The position numbers were made by a program, and so were the translations under genes. The notes beneath the pieces are model-generated. The model did not search any database. It was not told where the DNA came from and saw only the letters and a list, made by a program, of their open reading frames with translations. Positions 421 through 26,416 of a stretch of DNA of 27,903 bases are shown here, piece after piece. Source of the stretch: Polyangium sp. 6x1 (GTDB taxonomy: Bacteria; Myxococcota_A; Polyangia; Polyangiales; Polyangiaceae); the NCBI RefSeq assembly GCF_029946515.1, contig NZ_JARZHH010000040.1, positions 1 to 27,903 on the forward strand, read 5' to 3'. Within the stretch, counting starts at the first letter, position 1. Each line of letters opens with the position of its first letter.

Positions 421-493
421 AGGGGTATAGCTCAGCTGGTAGAGCAGCGGATTCCAAATCCGCAGGTCGGGAGTTCGAGCCTCTCTGCCCCTG
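421..493 (+). tRNA. tRNA-Trp (anticodon CCA)
   Basis: Cloverleaf read by eye: acceptor AGGGGTA/TGCCCCT (one G·U), D-arm GCTC-AGCTGGTA-GAGC, anticodon stem GCGGA/TCCGC with loop TTCCAAA (anticodon CCA), T-arm GGGAG-TTCGAGC-CTCTC, discriminator G. The rpmG–secE position is conserved. The track ORF 417..902 overlapping it is spurious. Confidence 0.88.
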
Positions 494-4332: not shown

Positions 4333-4380
4333 GGATCCGGGCTTCCCGTTCAGGGACAGCGCGATCCGCCATGCGACGGC

Positions 4381-4423
4381 GGCAGGGGCGAACGTCCCTG
4401 CCGCGCGTCGAGTTTTGTCTTTG
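4381..4423 (+). terminator. rplL–rpoB intergenic hairpin plus T-rich tract (attenuator candidate)
   Basis: GGCAGGG-gcgaacgt-CCCTGCC (4381-4402) is followed by cgcgcgtcgagTTTTgtcTTT. Lies within the 272-nt rplL–rpoB spacer, the position of the known partial terminator in E. coli. Confidence 0.4.
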
Positions 4424-4604
4424 GGGGGTTTGCTGCTGCGTCTGTCGCGTGTTTCGGGCGCGTCTTCCAGGTCGCGGTAGCGCAGCCGAGTTTGTCCGTC
4501 GCCGGGACCTTTGATGGCTGTTTCGTAGCTTCGAGGCTGATGCTCGGTTCGTGGAGCGCGCGGGGATCGAGCCCTGTGCACCCGTAGGAGCCGGAGGAAT
4601 ATCG

Positions 4605-8732
<4,128 letters not shown>

Positions 8733-8738
8733 TGCCGA

Positions 8739-13070
<4,332 letters not shown>

Positions 13071-13122
13071 GGTGCAGGGGAGGGGGGCCGTCGTCGCTGA
13101 CGGCCTCCTGACCCCTCGACGC

Positions 13123-13165
13123 ACGCCCGCCCTGTCTTCAGGCGCGGGCGTGTGTTCTTTTGTTC
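13123..13165 (+). terminator. Rho-independent terminator downstream of rpoC
   Basis: ACGCCCGC-cctgtcttcaggc-GCGGGCGT hairpin (13123-13151) is followed by gtgTTCTTTTGTTc. Confidence 0.55.
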
Positions 13166-13267
13166 GGCCAGGCACGCGCCGTCTCCTGCCGATCCGCCGG
13201 ATGGCTGCTGCTTCGCGGGTCTTGGGATCCCCCGTCGTTGCGGACATGTACTATCTCTGCACTCGCG

Positions 13268-15448
13268 ATGTCCGTGCACGGCACCAACCAGCGTGTCGCT
13301 GATCGCCTGCTCTCCGAGGGCCGGATCGGGGCCGAGGAGCATCGGCGCGCCGTGGAGCACGCGAGCCGTCAGCGTGGCCGCATCGAGGACTCCCTCGTCG
13401 AGCTCGACATCGTGCCCGAAGGAGATCTCCTCAAGTACGTCGCGACGCTGCACAACACGCGGTTCGTCTCGACCGAGAAGCTCGCGAAGGCCGCGATCGA
13501 GCCGCGCGTGCTCGGCCGCGTGTTACCGAAGACCGCGAAGATGCACGGCGTCTTCCCGGTGCTGCTCGACGAGGCGAAGTCGGTGCTCTCCGTCGTCACC
13601 GCAGATCCCGACAACGACGCTGCGATCCACGAGGTGAAGCTCGCGGCGGGCGTGCGCGAGGTGCGCGCGCTCGTGGCGCGGCCGGCGGCGGTGCGCGCTG
13701 CGATCGCGCGGCACTACTTCAAGGACGCATCGGCCTTCGAGGCGGTCCTCCGTCCGGTCGCGACGAACGCGACGACCGGCGACTTCATCGACATCGATCT
13801 CGGCCCCTCGCCGGCGCGCCCTGCGACGGGGCCCGTGCCGACGCCTGCCGCATCGCCGCGCAACACGGCCGCGCAGACGCCGCCGCCGCGCGCGCCGATG
13901 CCCACGTCTCCCTCTGCGACCGGACAAACCAGCCCGTCCGTGATGGCGCGCGAGCAGACGCAGCCCTCGCCGAATGCGGGCAGCACGCAGCCCTCCGTGA
14001 ACGGCGGCGGGCCTGCGCCGCTCGCGGCGAGCGCGCAGACGTCGCCGACCGGAGGGCACGCGCCGACCACGCAGGTTCGTCCGTTGACGGCGACCACGCC
14101 GTCGCCCACGCCGCCGCCTCCACCGGTCCCGATCCTCACGCCGATCGAGACGCACGAGTACATCGAGACGCTCAACGTCCTCGTGAGCTTGCTCGAAGCG
14201 AACCGCCAGGATCTCCGCGGCCACTCGGCCGTCGTCGCGCGCCTCTGCCGCCGCACGTGCGAGCGCATCGGCCTCGCGCCTGCGCACGTCGCGGCGTTCG
14301 TCGTGGCCGCGTACCTGCACGATCTCGGCAAGATGGGCGCGTATCACCTCACCGCGCTGAACGTCGCGGAGTACGAGGGCCACCGCGTCGCGGGCCTCAA
14401 GGCCGTCGCGCTCCCGGCGCAGCTCATGGGATCGGTCGGGCTACCCGCGGAGACCGTCGCCGCGCTGCAGGCGATGTACGAGCGATACGACGGCCGCGGC
14501 TTGCCGCATGGCCTCGCCGGCAAGGAGATCCCGCTCGGCGCGCGCATCCTCGCCGTCGCGGACACCTACGCCGATCTCACGCAGAACCCGCGCAATCCGT
14601 TCCGCAAGATCCTCCGCCCGGCCGAGGCGTGCGACGTGCTCGCCGGGTATCGCGGCACGGTCTTCGATCCGAACATCGTCGACCTCTTCCGGCACGAGGT
14701 CACGGGCGACGACATGCGCGCGCGGCTTTTGTCCGAGCGGTACACCGTGCTCGTCATCGATCCGGATCCCGAGGAGACCACGGTGCTCGAGCTTCGGCTC
14801 ATCGAGCAGGGCTTCGAGGTGCGCGTCGCGCGGACCGTGGCGCAGGCGTGGCGCGAGCTCGAGGGCGGCGAGATCGCGGCGGTCGTCAGCGAGATCGACC
14901 TCGAAGAGCCGGAGATGGGCCTCGCGCTCCGCGCCGACGCGCAGAAGGAGTCGTGGGGGCGCGGGATCACGTGGGTGATCCTCACGCGCAAGAACGACCG
15001 TCACAGCGCGCAGAAGGCCTTTGATCTCGGCGTCGACGACTTCGTCGCGAAGCCGACGTCCGCGGACATCTTCGCCGCGAAGCTCCGTCAGCTCGTCGAG
15101 CGCCGCGTCGCGCGCGGCGGCGGGCGTGGCGTGACGGGATCGCTCGCGGAGATGAGCATTCCGGACATGGTCCAGGTCCTCTGGCATGGCCGCAAGACGT
15201 GCGCGCTGCGGATCCAGACTGGCAAGGGCACGGGCGAGATCCACTTCGCGGATGGGCAGGTCGTGGACGCGCGCTGGGAGCAGGTCGTCGGCGAGGAGGC
15301 CTTCTACCGGATGCTCACGTTGAACGAGGGCGAGTTCCGGCTCGAGCCGGGCGTCGAGCCCTCCGGCCGCACGATCGCTGCTTCGCCCGAGGCGCTCTTG
15401 CTCGAAGGCATGCGCCGCCTCGACGAGGGCATGCTGCACGCGCCGTAG
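13268..15448 (+). CDS. Multidomain c-di-GMP-type signalling protein: T2SSE_N/MshEN-like N-domain – Pro/Ala/Thr-rich linker – HD-GYP domain with degenerate GYP and HHE motifs – REC receiver – DUF4388-like C-domain
   Basis: 726 aa from the ATG at 13268 (MSVHGTNQRV...); the track ORF begins at an upstream alternative start. The N-domain (RVADRLLSEGRIGAEEHRRAVEHASRQ…VFPVLLDEAKSVLSVVTADPDNDAAIHEV…) fits the GspE-N / T2SSE_N profile. The HD-GYP core is HSAVVARLCRRTCERIGL…YLHDLGKMG…YERYDGRGLPHGLAGKEIPLGARILAVADTYADL; GYP is replaced by GLP and the HHE metal ligands are absent. REC: YTVLVIDPDPEE…VVSEIDLEEPEMG…WVILTRKND…FVAKP. The C-terminus LAEMSIPDMVQVLWHGRKTCALRIQTGKGTGEIHFADGQVVDARWEQVVGEEAFYRMLTLNEGEFRLE resembles DUF4388. 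Domain calls are from motif recognition, not a database search. Confidence 0.8.
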   Translation: MSVHGTNQRVADRLLSEGRIGAEEHRRAVEHASRQRGRIEDSLVELDIVPEGDLLKYVATLHNTRFVSTEKLAKAAIEPRVLGRVLPKTAKMHGVFPVLLDEAKSVLSVVTADPDNDAAIHEVKLAAGVREVRALVARPAAVRAAIARHYFKDASAFEAVLRPVATNATTGDFIDIDLGPSPARPATGPVPTPAASPRNTAAQTPPPRAPMPTSPSATGQTSPSVMAREQTQPSPNAGSTQPSVNGGGPAPLAASAQTSPTGGHAPTTQVRPLTATTPSPTPPPPPVPILTPIETHEYIETLNVLVSLLEANRQDLRGHSAVVARLCRRTCERIGLAPAHVAAFVVAAYLHDLGKMGAYHLTALNVAEYEGHRVAGLKAVALPAQLMGSVGLPAETVAALQAMYERYDGRGLPHGLAGKEIPLGARILAVADTYADLTQNPRNPFRKILRPAEACDVLAGYRGTVFDPNIVDLFRHEVTGDDMRARLLSERYTVLVIDPDPEETTVLELRLIEQGFEVRVARTVAQAWRELEGGEIAAVVSEIDLEEPEMGLALRADAQKESWGRGITWVILTRKNDRHSAQKAFDLGVDDFVAKPTSADIFAAKLRQLVERRVARGGGRGVTGSLAEMSIPDMVQVLWHGRKTCALRIQTGKGTGEIHFADGQVVDARWEQVVGEEAFYRMLTLNEGEFRLEPGVEPSGRTIAASPEALLLEGMRRLDEGMLHAP

Positions 15449-15477
15449 CGGTCATTCCAGTGACCGCTCTCTTTTCC
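15447..15477 (+). terminator. Rho-independent terminator overlapping the stop of the HD-GYP gene
   Basis: AGCGGTCA-ttccag-TGACCGCT (15447-15468) is followed by ctcTTTTcc. Confidence 0.6.
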
Positions 15478-15611
15478 TGATCTCCCGTCACCGCGCGTCT
15501 CTGGAGCGTGGAGCGGCGTAGAATGAAAGCGCCGCGCGCCTTCATGGGGTGGCTCGCGTGGCGAAGCGTTCCTCGCTCGGCGTTGCCGGGCCCTTGCCTT
15601 GGAGAATCGCG

Positions 15612-16988
15612 ATGAAGCTCCTTCGCGCCCTCGCCTTGTCTTTGCCGTTCCTCTTGGCGCCCGCCCTCTACGCGACCGATTCGGATGCGTGCGGCGGTTG
15701 TTTCATCAGCCAGCAGGAGACCACGCAGGTCACCGGCCATCGCATGGTTCTTTCGATCTCAAACGATCGCACGACCCTTTGGGATCAAATCACCTACGCC
15801 GGTGATCCTTCCTCGTTCGCCTGGCTCCTGCCGATCAAGGGACAGGTCGACGTCGGGCTCTCGTCGGACGCTGTCTTTGGCGCGCTCGAACAGGCCACGC
15901 AGGTCTCGGTCCTCTCGCCCTCGATCAACTGCCTCCCGTCGGGCTGCGTGGGCGCGCCGAACGCCGGCGGGGACGGCGCCGGCGGCAGCGGCGGCGCGGG
16001 CGGCGGCGTCGAGGTCATCGCCGAAGAGGTCGTCGGTCCGTACGCGACGGTGCAGCTCTCCTCGCAGGATCCGAGCGCGCTCGCGAACTGGTTGCTCACG
16101 AACGGCTACAACATCCCGCCGGACATCAAGCCGATCGTCGACGCGTACGTGAGCGAGGGCTTCGACTTCCTCGCCCTCAAGCTCGTGCCCGGCCAGGGCA
16201 TCGATTCGATGCGCCCCGTGCGCGTCACGTCGCCGGGCGCGGTGCCGGTCTTGCCGCTGCGCATGGTCGCCGCGGGCACGGGCGCGATCACGCCGATCAC
16301 GTTGTGGGTCCTCGCCGAGGGCCGCTACGAGCCGACGAACTTCCCGAGCTTCAAGATCAAGGCCCCGGATCTCGTGTGGAACTGGGACACGCAGTCGAGC
16401 AACTACAAGGACCTCAAGCAGAAGAGCTTCGACGCGTCGGGCGGCAAGGCGTGGCTCGTCGAGGCGGGCGAGCCGCTGTCGCGCTACTGGATCGAAGACA
16501 GCCTCAAGTACACGGCCGAATACGACCCGGAAAACAGCGGCTACGGCGGCGATCCGATGGGCCCGACTGCGCTCGAGGAGTGCGTCGAGGACCTCGACGC
16601 GCTCTTCGGTGCGATCCCCGAGAACAACCTCTGGGTGACCCGCATCCACGCGGAGCTCTCGCGCGCGGCGCTCGCGGCGGATCTGAAGCTCGGCGCGTCG
16701 AACGACCAGTCGTACATCGAGCGATGGCTCCAGGTCACGAACGCCGTCGGCACGCCGCCCGTGTGCCCGCCGCCGCCGGAGTGGTGCACGGGCACGGGCG
16801 AAGGGCCGGGATCCGACCCCGACCTGAACCCGTGGGACAACGGCTTCGGCGTGGGCGAGGACGACCCGAACCCGGGCTCGAGCAGCGGCGGCTGCGCCGT
16901 CGGCGGCGAGTCGGGCATGCCCGCGGCGCTCGGGCTCCTCGGCGGCGCGATGCTGCTGTCCGTCGCGCGTCGCCGTCGTCGCCGCTGA
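15612..16988 (+). CDS. Secreted protein with Sec signal peptide, Gly-rich tract, and C-terminal MYXO-CTERM-like sorting tail; central region may be DUF2330-like (unverified)
   Basis: Start ATG 15612 (MKLLRALALSLPFLLAPALYATD) with RBS GGAGAA 5 nt upstream; the track ORF begins 63 nt further upstream. The C-terminus ...GSSSGGCAVGGESGMPAALGLLGGAMLLSVARRRRRR* has an invariant Cys, then a Gly-rich spacer, a hydrophobic helix and an Arg cluster, which is the MYXO-CTERM pattern. Internal GGDGAGGSGGAGGG tract. Confidence 0.8.
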   Translation: MKLLRALALSLPFLLAPALYATDSDACGGCFISQQETTQVTGHRMVLSISNDRTTLWDQITYAGDPSSFAWLLPIKGQVDVGLSSDAVFGALEQATQVSVLSPSINCLPSGCVGAPNAGGDGAGGSGGAGGGVEVIAEEVVGPYATVQLSSQDPSALANWLLTNGYNIPPDIKPIVDAYVSEGFDFLALKLVPGQGIDSMRPVRVTSPGAVPVLPLRMVAAGTGAITPITLWVLAEGRYEPTNFPSFKIKAPDLVWNWDTQSSNYKDLKQKSFDASGGKAWLVEAGEPLSRYWIEDSLKYTAEYDPENSGYGGDPMGPTALEECVEDLDALFGAIPENNLWVTRIHAELSRAALAADLKLGASNDQSYIERWLQVTNAVGTPPVCPPPPEWCTGTGEGPGSDPDLNPWDNGFGVGEDDPNPGSSSGGCAVGGESGMPAALGLLGGAMLLSVARRRRRR

Positions 16989-23528: not shown

Positions 23529-24689
23529 ATGGAGCGTACCCTCGGAACCTTGGGAATCAGGGTTCAAGGGAAAATCGGCGATAAATACGAGCTCTCGACC
23601 GTTCTCGGGGAGGGGGCGATAGGCACGGTCTACGCCGCGAAGAACCTGCAAACCGGCCGGCGCGTGGCGATCAAATCGCTGCGGCTGGGGAGCGTCCTTG
23701 CCCCGCATGATCCCGAGCTCCTGCGCTTCGAGCAGGAGGCGCGCATCGCGGGGTCGCTCGCGTCGGAGCACATCGCCCAGGTGCTCGACATCGAGCGGGA
23801 TCCCGCCACGGACGCGCCGTTTCTCGTGATGGAGCTGCTCCGCGGCGAGGACTTGCAATCCCTCCTCGACCGGGTCGGTCCCTTGCAGGTCGACGTGGCG
23901 CTGCGGATCGCGGCGCAGGTTTGCGTGGGGCTCGCGGCGGCGCATGCGGCGGGCGTGGTGCATCGGGACATCAAGCCCGGCAATCTCTTTCTCGCGCGGC
24001 GGGAAGGCGGCGCAATCGTGGTCAAGATCCTCGATTTCGGCCTCGCCAAGATCCGGCGCCTCCCACCGGATCCTTCCACGAGCGCCGCGCCTTTGGCCCT
24101 CTCGGCACCGCAGCTCTCCATGACCGAGACGGGGCAGCTCCTCGGCTCGCCGCTTTACATGTCGCCGGAGCAGCTCGACGGCGCGAAAGGCGTCGACGCA
24201 CGCAGCGACCTGTTTTCGCTGGCGGTGACGCTGTTCGCGATGCTCGCCGGAAAGCCGCCGCATGCGGACGTCAAATCGTTCCCCTTGCTGCTCAAGCATA
24301 TCGCGACGAAGCCGATGCCCAAGGTGCGCGAGGTCGTGCCGGGGGTCGGCCCCGATGTGGAGGCGCTCCTCGAACGGGCGTCACGGCTGGAGCGTGAAGA
24401 ACGGTTCTCCAGCGCGGCGGCGATGCTCGAAGCGATGATGCCCCTCTTGGCGGGAGGCATGGCGTTGCGGGAGGACATGCTCGTCGGCCGCAGGGACGCG
24501 CCCAGCGAGGTGGGCATGACCCAGGTGAAGAGCGATCCGTACGCCACGATCGAGCGCGCGGTGGCCGAGGAACGGGCGCCGACGGAGGCGACGGTCGCGT
24601 CGCGCCCCCGGCGATGGCCTGTGTGGCTCGGGATCGCCGTCGTCCTCGTGGCGGCGGTCGTGATGGCCCTCGGACTCCTTGGGCGCTAA
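23529..24689 (+). CDS. Hanks-type Ser/Thr protein kinase with C-terminal transmembrane anchor
   Basis: 386 aa. GEGAIGTVY (P-loop), VAIKSL (VAIK Lys), HRDIKPGNLFL (catalytic loop), DFGLAK, SPEQ. C-terminal hydrophobic WPVWLGIAVVLVAAVVMALGLLGR. Confidence 0.88.
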   Translation: MERTLGTLGIRVQGKIGDKYELSTVLGEGAIGTVYAAKNLQTGRRVAIKSLRLGSVLAPHDPELLRFEQEARIAGSLASEHIAQVLDIERDPATDAPFLVMELLRGEDLQSLLDRVGPLQVDVALRIAAQVCVGLAAAHAAGVVHRDIKPGNLFLARREGGAIVVKILDFGLAKIRRLPPDPSTSAAPLALSAPQLSMTETGQLLGSPLYMSPEQLDGAKGVDARSDLFSLAVTLFAMLAGKPPHADVKSFPLLLKHIATKPMPKVREVVPGVGPDVEALLERASRLEREERFSSAAAMLEAMMPLLAGGMALREDMLVGRRDAPSEVGMTQVKSDPYATIERAVAEERAPTEATVASRPRRWPVWLGIAVVLVAAVVMALGLLGR

Positions 24690-24691
24690 GG

Positions 24692-26416
24692 ATGGGCATG
24701 AACCAGCGGCAAATCCTGGGTTTCGTCGATCGGCTCCGGAAGGCGAGAACCTTCGAGGACGCCGCGCACACCTTGCTGCGCGCGATGCTCGACGCGGCGC
24801 TCGCGGCGCTCGCGGAGAGCGGTTTCGCCGGCCGCGGCAAGATCCTCCGCGGCATGGCGCACTGGCGGCCCGGCGACGGCTACCGGCGACTGGTCCTCCT
24901 CGACGACACGCAGCGCGGCGGCGAGCCGACCATCAACTATTTGCCCTCCGTGAGCGCGTGGCGCTGGGTCGTCACGCGCGCATGCCCCATTGCGATCGAC
25001 GTCCCGCTCGGCCGCGTATGGTCGTGGCAAAACGAATCCGCGAACGTGTTCCAGGAGGGCGGATTCTCCGGTCAGGACAGCGTGCTTCGGCTGACGAGCC
25101 GCGACACGAGCCACCTTTACGCGATCCCGCTGCGCACCCTGCACGGCGCGATCGAGGGAATGGCCACCGTCGAGGCGGGGTGCCCGAGGGCTCTCGGCGA
25201 CGATTTCATCTTTCCGGCCATTCACGAACCGCTCGAGCTCCTCGCCGACCTCGCGGCGCCTTACCTCGCGACCCTCCCGCCCCGGCCCGCGGCGACCGGC
25301 GCGACCGACGACCTCTTGCCCGTCATGGGCCAGAGCATGGCGGGCTTGATCGACATGCTCCGCGTCTTTGCGCAGCAGGAGGAGACCCTGCTCATCGGCG
25401 GTCCCACGGGTGCAGGCAAATCGCGCCTCGCGCGCTGGTGCCACGCGCGATCGGTCCGGCGCGGGGCGCCCTTCGAGGTCCTCGACCTCATCGCCGTGCC
25501 CGAGGAGCTGCAAATGGCGGAGCTCTTCGGCTGGAAAAAGGGCGCGTTCACGGGCGCGGTGCGCGATACGCCCGGGTGCATCACGCGGGCCTTCAAGGGG
25601 ACGTTGTTCATCGACGAGATCGACAAACTCTCGCTGAAAGCGCAGGCGGGATTGCTCCAGCTCCTCGAATCGCGTACGTATCGCCCGATCGGGGACGGCG
25701 CGCGAGAGCAGCTGGCGAACGTGCGTTTCATCGTGGGGAGCAACGTCGACCTGTACGATCAGGTGAAGGCCGGTCGATTTCGGGAGGACCTTTACTACCG
25801 GATCAACGTGCTCCCGGTGCAGATCCCCCCGCTCGACGAGCGCCGGGACGAAATCGCGGAATGGGCGCGCTTCATGGCCACGCGGCGCCATCGAGAATCG
25901 GTCCCGGGCGGGGAAGCGCGGATCGCGGCCGGCGCGGAGCGGCTGCTCGGCGAGCACAGCTGGCCGGGCAATTTGCGGCAGCTCGACAACGTCGTCCGCC
26001 GGGCGTACGCGCTCGCGCTCATGACGCAGGGCGAGGCAGGGCTCGAGATCTTGCTGGAGGAAAAGCATTTCGCGCGCGCCCTGAGCTACGAGCGGGGGAG
26101 CGGGCGAAGGTCGACCCTCGACGACCTGCGCGTCGCGGCGGGCGCGATCGTGGAAGAGGCCGAGCGGCAGCAGGGAAAGGGCCTCGTGCTCGACCTGGAG
26201 CTCTCGGACGCATTCCGCGGCATCGTGCTCGGCACGGCGGTGGAGCGGCTCGGCAGCAAGGACGCGGCGTTCCGGCTTTTTGGGAAGGGCGCGCAGGTGC
26301 AGGCGCGCAATCACCACAAGATGCTGCGGCGCGAGCTGGAGAAGGTCGAGGCGCTCTGCAAGGCGCTCGGGGAGGACGGCGGGCCCTTTCGGGAGCTGGG
26401 GGACGACGAGGCCTGA
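24692..26416 (+). CDS. Sigma-54-dependent transcriptional activator (bEBP): N-terminal sensory domain (GAF-like?) + AAA+ sigma54-interaction domain + C-terminal Fis-type HTH
   Basis: 574 aa from the ATG at 24692, 2 nt after the kinase stop. Walker A GGPTGAGKSRLA, GAFTGA motif (WKKGAFTGA), Walker B TLFIDEID, ESRTYRPIG, R-finger region RFREDLYYRINVLPVQIPPLDERRDEI, WPGNLRQL. C-terminal ...AVERLGSKDAAFRLFGKG...MLRRELEK is HTH_8-like. Confidence 0.88.
   Translation: MGMNQRQILGFVDRLRKARTFEDAAHTLLRAMLDAALAALAESGFAGRGKILRGMAHWRPGDGYRRLVLLDDTQRGGEPTINYLPSVSAWRWVVTRACPIAIDVPLGRVWSWQNESANVFQEGGFSGQDSVLRLTSRDTSHLYAIPLRTLHGAIEGMATVEAGCPRALGDDFIFPAIHEPLELLADLAAPYLATLPPRPAATGATDDLLPVMGQSMAGLIDMLRVFAQQEETLLIGGPTGAGKSRLARWCHARSVRRGAPFEVLDLIAVPEELQMAELFGWKKGAFTGAVRDTPGCITRAFKGTLFIDEIDKLSLKAQAGLLQLLESRTYRPIGDGAREQLANVRFIVGSNVDLYDQVKAGRFREDLYYRINVLPVQIPPLDERRDEIAEWARFMATRRHRESVPGGEARIAAGAERLLGEHSWPGNLRQLDNVVRRAYALALMTQGEAGLEILLEEKHFARALSYERGSGRRSTLDDLRVAAGAIVEEAERQQGKGLVLDLELSDAFRGIVLGTAVERLGSKDAAFRLFGKGAQVQARNHHKMLRRELEKVEALCKALGEDGGPFRELGDDEA

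Follow-up and report, generated by a model that had tools for sequence, protein, structure and literature searches.

We analyzed a gene in 27,903 nucleotides (nt) of DNA from Polyangium sp. 6x1 (contig NZ_JARZHH010000040.1, positions 1 to 27,903; hereafter the window) that encodes a protein of 726 amino acids (aa) with MshEN-like, HD-GYP-like, receiver-like and PATAN domains, in that order. We propose that this protein is a non-hydrolyzing cytoplasmic sensor or adaptor with its output through the PATAN domain, and not a phosphodiesterase of cyclic di-GMP (c-di-GMP); we put the probability of this reading at roughly 0.55. The protein is the Polyangium member of a Myxococcota-wide family that has already been catalogued, and both the architecture and the HD-GYP degeneracy of this family are in the literature. 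Our analysis adds four points: (i) the replacement of the HD-GYP histidine pair by [M/L]Y is universal in the family and ancient; (ii) the KPG loop is missing; (iii) the receiver has no acceptor aspartate; and (iv) loss of the MshEN motif is specific to the Polyangiaceae branch. The gene and the parts of its product are listed below, with the supporting evidence in brackets (dN/dS, ratio of nonsynonymous to synonymous substitution rates; pLDDT, predicted local distance difference test; TM, template modelling score).

13268..15448 (+), coding sequence of the MshEN-like / HD-GYP-like / probable pseudo-receiver / PATAN protein, 726 aa (Pfam, NCBI identity, dN/dS 0.10-0.16)
13286..13759 (+), GSPII / MshEN-type domain, residues 7-164, resembling the PilB N-terminus, with degenerate motifs at residues 9-32 and 38-61 (Pfam, alignments, AlphaFold2 pLDDT ~90, fold search)
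13760..14137 (+), disordered linker rich in Pro, Ala, Thr and Ser, residues 165-290 (AlphaFold2 pLDDT <50; dN/dS 0.24-0.68)
14138..14713 (+), HD-GYP-like domain, residues 291-482 (Pfam, alignments, family counts, dN/dS, fold matches to PA4781 and DvhD)
14735..15115 (+), receiver-fold domain, residues 490-616, with Glu542 (nt 14891-14893) and Pro499 (Pfam 40.1 bits, AlphaFold2, profile alignment, family counts, fold TM ~0.9)
15134..15427 (+), C-terminal PATAN (DUF4388 / PatA_N) domain, residues 623-720 (Pfam 92 bits; AlphaFold2 pLDDT 80-93)

The open reading frame (ORF) covers 13160..15448 (+), and translation from the ATG at 13268 gives a product with 100% identity to an NCBI protein from Polyangium sp. 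6x1. We rejected the TTG at 13160 as start codon, as it overlaps a terminator U-tract and the homologues and the NCBI model begin at the ATG. The four-domain architecture proposed in the initial annotation was confirmed by Pfam, with every match above its own gathering cut-off: MshEN (PF05157, residues 73-150, 37.7 bits against a cut-off of 23.1), HD_5 (PF13487, residues 304-470, 76.8 bits against 27.2), Response_reg (PF00072, residues 494-602, cut-off 30.2) and DUF4388 (PF14332, residues 623-720, cut-off 25, covering model positions 1-120 of 122). The HD family (PF01966) overlaps the HD_5 region at 36.3 bits. An AlphaFold2 model, built with a 46-sequence family alignment, contains four confident domains (residues 7-164, 291-482, 490-616 and 627-720, mostly at pLDDT 80-95). 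Searching the PDB with Foldseek matched the HD-GYP part to PA4781 and DvhD (entries 4r8z and 9rbz) and to 4mcw, the receiver part to many receiver domains and the N-terminal domain to PilF GSPII-A. The gene is under purifying selection, with the overall dN/dS given above obtained at a dS of ~0.2 against four Polyangium species. Resolved by domain, these comparisons put HD-GYP at ~0-0.01, the receiver at 0.02-0.05, GSPII at 0.05-0.16 and PATAN at 0.06-0.22. The linker is the fastest-evolving part of the protein, and its length in Polyangium exceeds that in most relatives, which measure ~640-660 aa overall, by ~70-90 residues.

The HD-GYP-like domain has both the HD-GYP fold and the Pfam match. 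In alignments to PA4781, V-cGAP3, DvhD and PmGH, the HHE triplet is replaced by M403-Y404-E405 (nt 14474-14482) and GYP by G411-L412-P413. The sequence at the position of HHExh[D/N]GxGYP, the motif by which Galperin and Chou count HD-GYP domains, reads MYERYDGRGLP. Alignment to solved HD-GYP domains gives the following equivalents for the functional residues of PmGH.

PmGH D183: R313, lost
PmGH E185: D315, conservative
PmGH H189: H319, kept
PmGH H221/D222: H351/D352, kept
PmGH K225: K355, kept
PmGH H250: H372, kept only on the assumption of an 8-residue deletion
PmGH H276/H277: M403/Y404, lost
PmGH G284-Y285-P286: G411-L412-P413, Tyr lost
PmGH D305: D432, kept

The full metal-ligand set of PmGH (E185, H189, H221, D222, H250, H276, H277 and D305) is broken by the loss of H276 and H277. 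The catalytic D183/K225 pair retains only its lysine, as K355, and the KPG segment after HDxGK is gone; its place is taken by MGAYHLTALNV, which is 8 residues shorter and is a conserved family-specific motif. In PmGH, the substitutions H276A, H277A and D183A each essentially abolish hydrolysis and GYP mutations do not (PMC4159591), and the main chain of the KPG motif binds the second guanine of c-di-GMP (bioRxiv 10.1101/2021.11.05.467447). With the HH pair and the GYP tyrosine both gone, a canonical c-di-GMP phosphodiesterase mechanism is very unlikely on the residues present. The initial annotation had already described a degenerate phosphodiesterase, and it read the HH loss, the GLP and the kept HD motif (H319, H351-D352 and K355) correctly; its reading of YERY in place of HHE should be MYE.

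We counted residues at these positions in 118 full-length representatives of 50%-identity clusters of the family. None has HHE: position 403 is Met in 56 and Leu in 43, and is followed by Y404 in 107 and E405 in 116. Position 412 is Phe in 67, Leu in 24, Val in 11, Ile in 10 and Tyr in only 2. Much of the remaining site is near-invariant (H319 in 118, H351 in 117, D352 in 107, K355 in 106, G409 in 117, G411 in 117 and P413 in 118), and the D432 position is Asp or Glu throughout. From these residues, a mononuclear H/HD/D metal site has probably been retained. Within Polyangium the domain is under the tightest constraint in the protein, with a dN of ~0 at a dS of ~0.21. The [M/L]YE variant is thus old and strongly maintained, not decaying.

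An alternative is an active phosphohydrolase with an altered metal center, in which the H...HD...D site, possibly with H372 and Tyr404, acts on a substrate other than c-di-GMP (pGpG, 3',3'-cyclic GMP-AMP (cGAMP) or another nucleotide) or performs a partial reaction. The near-invariant H319, H351, D352 and K355, the Asp or Glu at 432, the lowest dN/dS in the protein and the family-specific [M/L]YE signature all fit such an enzyme, as does the best PDB profile match of the domain, the cGAMP-specific V-cGAP3 (E 6.9e-29). In many HD-superfamily hydrolases, H...HD...D alone is enough for catalysis. Nevertheless, we consider this alternative unlikely: any one of the three PmGH changes cited above abolishes activity and all three positions are changed here, H372 occurs in only 78 of 118 representatives and corresponds to H250 only with the assumed 8-residue deletion, and the known HD-GYP proteins with an altered HHE, namely HnoD, ECA3548 and DvhD, are inactive. 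DvhD, the second-ranked solved entry in our fold search after PA4781, offers a precedent for a non-hydrolyzing receptor; its HD-GYP domain, in which HH is MN, binds c-di-GMP metal-free and without hydrolysis (PMC13090378). The Polyangium protein may conceivably be a c-di-GMP receptor through its HD-GYP-like pocket.

The receiver-fold domain is CheY-like in both fold and Pfam family, and lacks the phospho-acceptor Asp. The family receiver profile aligns without gaps in the acceptor region with Escherichia coli CheY and PhoB and Bacillus subtilis Spo0F (reference sequences entered by hand), placing "vvsE" on "visD", "illD" and "vllD". By this alignment, E542 is the equivalent of CheY D57 and P499 that of D13; D498, T573 and K595 of the D12/D13, T87 and K109 set are present. 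Strand beta3 of the AlphaFold2 model ends at E542. The best PDB alignment (PhoP) agrees on E542, and one other PDB alignment puts D544 there through a 2-residue gap. We considered D544 as acceptor, based on that alignment and a D-x-x-x-P spacing, and dropped it in view of the ungapped family profile and the beta3 end; position 544 is Asp in only 58 representatives and Glu in 23. The acceptor position itself is Glu in 98, Asp in 8 and another residue in 12, and the other sites are P499 in 73, D498 in 102, Thr or Ser at 573 in 94 and K595 in 109. Members of the Myxococcus branch have Leu at this acceptor position, and Pfam often misses their receiver altogether. We regard the domain as a probable aspartate-less pseudo-receiver, and control of the Polyangium protein by phosphorylation appears unlikely because Glu occupies the acceptor position and Pro the D13 position.

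The N-terminal domain is a complete MshEN-type fold with eroded ligand motifs. Residues 8-164 align over their full length with the GSPII N-termini of PilB (Myxococcus xanthus, Geobacter) and PilF, and the best GSPII-type fold match is PilF GSPII-A (9g1w). We scored the two motifs against the relaxed 24-residue motif of Wang et al. 2016, [RKPN]hGxxhhxx[GAS]hhxxxxhxxxhxx[QNKRYWST]. Motif I (R9-A32) agrees at 7 of 11 positions, with A11 at Gly3, R19 at h11, H25 at h17 and A32 at Gln24; motif II (R38-L61) agrees at 8 of 11, with E40 at Gly3, D47 at Gly10 and L61 at Gln24. Gly3 and Gln24 are lost in both, and the match to the NCBIfam model for the MshE c-di-GMP motif, NF053729, stays at 16.7 bits, below the cut-off of 38. 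In PilF GSPII constructs, replacement of Gly3 by Ala alone cuts affinity ~10-30 fold and additional loss of the motif Arg abolishes binding; the motif Gln residues touch the ribose-phosphate backbone (PMC12002112). The replacement sequence is strongly conserved in Polyangiaceae as NQR[IV]ADRLLxEGR[IL]...HRRAV...RGRIE[DE]A[LI][IV]EL. Motif I is complete (11/11) in 15 of the 118 representatives, all in a distant branch that includes the Myxococcus type; the M. xanthus-type protein (P0382, motif region within residues 3-55) reads RLGERLIEAGLVNAGAVEQALEHQ, with motif I complete and motif II nearly so. Since the motif is intact in the Myxococcus branch and lost in Polyangium, canonical c-di-GMP binding by this domain is plausible in Myxococcus and unlikely in Polyangium. 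We note a reciprocal erosion across the family: the MshEN motif is whole in the Myxococcus/Archangium-type branch and degenerate in Polyangiaceae, and the receiver is better kept in Polyangiaceae than in Myxococcus.

These two domains bear on the model put forward in the initial annotation, in which the MshEN domain binds c-di-GMP and phosphorylation of the receiver switches the output. Our residue-level comparison supports neither half of it. Pfam does recognize both domains, R9 and R38 remain along with most of the hydrophobic motif positions, the receiver has D498, T573, K595 and an Asp (D544) two residues past the acceptor position, and motif I is complete in Myxococcus-branch relatives. 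Nonetheless, the Gly3 and Gln24 losses in both motifs, the loss of Gly10 in motif II, the measured cost of a Gly3 to Ala change and the NF053729 score argue against the MshEN domain as c-di-GMP binder. The Glu at the acceptor, the Pro at D13, the restriction of Asp544 to about half of the family, the Leu acceptor and frequent Pfam invisibility of the receiver in M. xanthus-type relatives and the absence of an adjacent kinase gene argue likewise against an output that depends on phosphorylation. For the Polyangium protein we find this model highly doubtful.

PF14332 matches the C-terminal PATAN domain over essentially the full model, and a PDB search by sequence found no solved PATAN homologue, with all matches at E > 0.1. 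Han et al. demonstrated binding of cyanobacterial PATAN domains to PilC and to the PilB1 N-terminal region, and observed co-occurrence of PATAN with GspE_N (bioRxiv 10.1101/2021.06.11.447907).

Returning to the sensor or adaptor that we favor, our data establish the identities of the domains, the residues at the key positions, membership in the family, purifying selection, transcription signals of the gene's own and the absence of conserved synteny, whereas we infer the absence of hydrolysis, the sensing of a ligand and the interaction partners. The HD-GYP-like domain would be the sensing module, holding a metal and/or a nucleotide ligand without turnover; we assign it this role because two histidines and probably the Asp equivalent to D183 are lost, H...HD...D is kept, and no other part of the protein is as tightly constrained. 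The receiver-fold domain has Glu in place of the acceptor Asp, would thus not be phosphorylatable at the usual site, and may serve as a fixed conformational or dimerization relay. The GSPII domain, with its likeness to the PilB N-terminus, and the PATAN domain would be the protein-interaction ends. By analogy with the cyanobacterial PATAN regulators, the target of these ends may be a type IV pilus or secretion ATPase machine.

We examined the transcription signals and neighborhood of the gene, which follows rpoC on the same strand at a distance of 197 nt; its neighbors in the window are rpoC, a DUF2330 protein gene and panB. The signals are the following.

13076..13116 (+), first hairpin past the rpoC stop codon at 13070 (minimum free energy fold of 13071-13170; kept in close Polyangium species)
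13118..13168 (+), intrinsic-terminator-like hairpin with stem 13118-13156 and U-rich tail, the probable rpoBC terminator (fold and terminator scan; kept in loci L001-L004)
13249..13254 (+), -10-like hexamer TACTAT (13 nt before the ATG; conserved block)
15447..15478 (+), terminator-like hairpin that starts in the last two bases of the stop codon, with a T-rich tail (terminator scan, fold)

The region 13071-13170 folds with a minimum free energy of -67.2 kcal/mol (z -6.2). The hairpin at 13118-13156 (dG -33 kcal/mol, z -6.27), with the U-rich tract next to it, was equalled by 0 of 200 shuffles. The hairpin at 15447-15468 is weaker (dG -13.9 kcal/mol, z -3.6) and is followed by CUCUUUUCC. Directly 5' of the ATG, 7 Polyangium loci share TGTACTATCTC...TCGCGATG as an invariant block, even those in metagenome-assembled genomes with only 66-68% identical protein. 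There is no Shine-Dalgarno sequence between TACTAT and the ATG, a consensus scan upstream found no full sigma-70 site, and Rfam at its gathering threshold reports no riboswitch or known RNA upstream of the gene. Other family loci (our L014, L019, L020, L024, L026, L029, L035, L038 and L045, in the stretch ~12-50 nt before the gene) have TATAAT, TATACT or TAAAAT 12-17 nt ahead of the ATG, likewise without a Shine-Dalgarno sequence. The spacing of the hexamer suggests an mRNA with a very short leader, or none, conserved family-wide, with a putative promoter role for TACTAT. The claim of the initial annotation that the gene is an independent unit between terminators of its own is supported by the hairpins on both sides and the conserved -10-like block, whose promoter function is putative.

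That annotation had also stressed the position after rpoBC. Among 77 related loci, rpoC lies directly upstream in 8, all of them Polyangium, and a ninth Polyangium locus ends on that side; the combination of rpoB-rpoC upstream and a DUF2330 gene downstream is seen in Polyangium loci only. In ~60 other Polyangiaceae loci, the gene has divergent rplM-rpsI-argC-uvrB upstream and a conserved 263-aa protein downstream. In the Myxococcus context, it is flanked on one side by the gene of an OB-fold protein (tRNA_anti-codon domain) and on the other by tatD, a HEAT-repeat gene and metG. No histidine kinase gene is adjacent in any of the three contexts. Adjacency to rpoBC is confined to the genus Polyangium and has no general meaning, which leaves the earlier emphasis unsupported, and we dropped synteny as a clue to function, as the three clades offer three unrelated contexts. 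Functional coupling to the rpoBC operon, for example as a transcription regulator, would draw on the short same-strand distance and on the conservation of the arrangement within Polyangium; with a strong terminator hairpin in between, a conserved -10-like element of its own and different neighbors both in ~65 other Polyangiaceae loci, where rplM-rpsI-argC-uvrB is adjacent, and in Myxococcus, we judge it exceedingly improbable.

Two downstream genes accompany the family. In most Polyangiaceae, a ~263-aa protein with the N-terminal sequence FNNNVKHRGRVFHIQTEDSG is encoded on the same strand directly 3' of the family gene (for example L025, 8197-8988 (+); ~60 non-Polyangium loci); it has no Pfam match, is not present in the window, and could be a partner gene. 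In Polyangium, the companion is the 479-aa DUF2330 protein (15549-16988 (+)), whose N-terminus resembles a signal peptide; it also contains a Gly-rich insert and, at the C-terminus, a hydrophobic stretch that ends in RRRRRR.

The family is large and strongly conserved, and comprises 316 representative clusters (50% identity) at E <= 1e-30. Named members come from Polyangium, Sorangium, Chondromyces, Minicystis, Myxococcus, Pyxidicoccus, Archangium, Cystobacter, Melittangium, Stigmatella and Hyalangium; ten distant clusters that we looked up were mostly unnamed metagenome proteins. As far as the named matches show, the family appears to be restricted to Myxococcota. The window protein has the family signature H...HDxGK...[M/L]YExxDGxG[F/L/V/I]P, and aligns end to end with P0382, with the four domains in the same order (residues 8-694 on 3-636, 30% identity, E 5e-80). 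A profile search and cluster look-up placed M. xanthus ABF87190.1 in the 90% cluster of P0382. Supplementary Table 4 of Wang et al. 2016 (PMC5013675) lists "MshEN - HD-GYP - REC - DUF4388" for ABF87190, labelled MXAN_2809. Skotnicka et al. 2015 described MXAN2807 (661 aa) as the one HD-GYP protein without several catalytic residues (PMC4686200), and Kuzmich et al. 2022 noted that MXAN_2807 carries both HD-GYP and MshEN domains (PMC8844925). ABF87190 most probably corresponds to the MXAN_2807 described by Skotnicka et al. 2015/2016 and Kuzmich et al. 2022. We note the mismatch in locus tags between Wang et al. 2016 and these Sogaard-Andersen laboratory papers on the 661-aa MshEN/HD-GYP protein. 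For a gene tagged MXAN_2809, a 2025 transcriptome paper reports strong up-regulation in fruA and in mrpC mutants (PMC11980068).

Several observations weigh against the sensor or adaptor reading. The near-invariant H319, H351, D352 and D432 could mean that catalysis is retained at a mononuclear HD site. The missing KPG claw weakens the case for c-di-GMP binding by the HD-GYP pocket in the pose of PmGH or DvhD. The AlphaFold2 model has a predicted TM score of 0.37 for the 726-aa protein, which makes its interdomain contacts uninformative, and the neighborhood differs across the three clades and gives no functional hint. An in-frame deletion of MXAN2807 left growth, gliding and type IV pilus-dependent motility unaffected (PMC4686200), and a 2016 developmental screen did not have MXAN2807 among the genes marked important for development (PMC4877007). 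A role in type IV pilus motility is thus not evident in M. xanthus, and with the only published deletion lacking a phenotype, the practical importance of the protein is uncertain.

The findings matter first for annotation. Database names such as "response regulator RpfG family c-di-GMP phosphodiesterase" and "HD domain-containing phosphohydrolase" imply a c-di-GMP-degrading, phosphorylation-controlled enzyme, and the sequence argues against both attributes. With three domains in one protein that each lack their textbook function, the family is a case for second-messenger modules turning into adaptors. Myxococcus, in which the MshEN motif is intact, and Polyangium, in which it is lost, form a natural experiment for locating the ligand-binding site. 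A bolder proposal is that the [M/L]YE / "YHLT" HD-GYP variant is no defunct enzyme but a distinct ancient subfamily with its own metal center (H, HD, D and possibly Tyr404) and its own ligand or substrate, such as 3',3'-cGAMP or pGpG, both relevant in myxobacteria. The pseudo-receiver would then pass a nucleotide signal to PATAN and the PilB-N-terminus mimic, and so to a pilus or secretion ATPase machine, and sensing in Polyangiaceae would have moved entirely from the MshEN to the HD-GYP-like domain. We offer this proposal as speculation that is unlikely to hold.

Elsewhere in the window, a tRNA gene at 421-493 (+) (Rfam, 66.3 bits) stands at the start of the nusG-rplKAJL-rpoBC cluster. At the gathering threshold, Rfam has no other match in the window, and thus no known ribosomal-protein leader. 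Two upstream ORFs lie at 159-359 and 629-1297. A 2965-aa ORF at 4350-13247 (-), antisense to rpoB-rpoC, is dominated by R, A, L, D and E, a composition expected of a shadow ORF in 68% G+C DNA, and is not a gene. A Ser/Thr protein kinase gene at 23529-24689 (+) overlaps by ~75 nt the start of a sigma-54 activator-type AAA+ gene at 24614-26416 (+), and the two may be a kinase-enhancer-binding-protein pair.

Among known systems, DvhD (PDB 9RBZ, Desulfovibrio vulgaris) shares the HD-GYP fold and the replacement of the HH pair by non-ligands, MN in DvhD and MY here. It differs in three respects: (i) its HD is also lost (SQ), whereas the Polyangium family keeps H...HD...D almost invariantly; (ii) it keeps the canonical loop v-P-s-r-l-L-t-K-P-G after HDxGK, which is replaced and shortened in the Polyangium protein; and (iii) its architecture is dCache-transmembrane-PAS-HD-GYP. 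In the first two respects, its pattern is the reverse of that in the Polyangium family. The active HD-GYP proteins (PmGH 4MCW, PA4781 4R8Z, V-cGAP3 5Z7C and the RpfG family) have in common with the Polyangium protein the fold, the Pfam family and the equivalents of H189, H221, D222, K225 and D305, with E185 as Asp315. They are set apart by the changes of H276/H277 to Met/Tyr, D183 to Arg and the GYP Tyr to Leu, by the missing KPG loop and, for the RpfG family, by a receiver that is N-terminal to HD-GYP; in the Polyangium protein it is C-terminal.

At the N-terminus, MshE and PilF GSPII (5HTL, 6EJF) and PilF GSPII-A (9G1W) share with the Polyangium domain a two-subdomain GSPII fold with two tandem 24-residue helical-hairpin motifs. 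Unlike MshE and PilF GSPII, the Polyangium protein has other residues at the c-di-GMP-contacting Gly3 and Gln24 and is without an ATPase domain; PilF GSPII-A is non-binding, yet is its best GSPII-type fold match. At the other end, the cyanobacterial PatA-type regulators (PixG, PixE, PatA) also combine PATAN, the output domain in cyanobacteria, with a receiver-fold domain. Their order is PATAN then receiver, whereas the Polyangium protein has the receiver first, no acceptor Asp and two extra domains, and no chemosensory gene neighborhood was found.

The closest counterpart is M. xanthus ABF87190, annotated as "GSPII_E domain/HD domain/response regulator" and, like the Polyangium protein, biochemically uncharacterized. 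The two share the four domains in order, the change of HHE to [M/L]YE and the loss of the GYP tyrosine. In contrast, Myxococcus keeps motif I (RLGERLIEAGL...ALEHQ) whole and motif II nearly so, where Polyangium is without Gly3 and Gln24 in both, and its receiver is more eroded: the acceptor position is occupied by Leu, and the K109 equivalent is not Lys. In Polyangium, for its part, the protein has a longer Pro-rich linker and the gene a different context.

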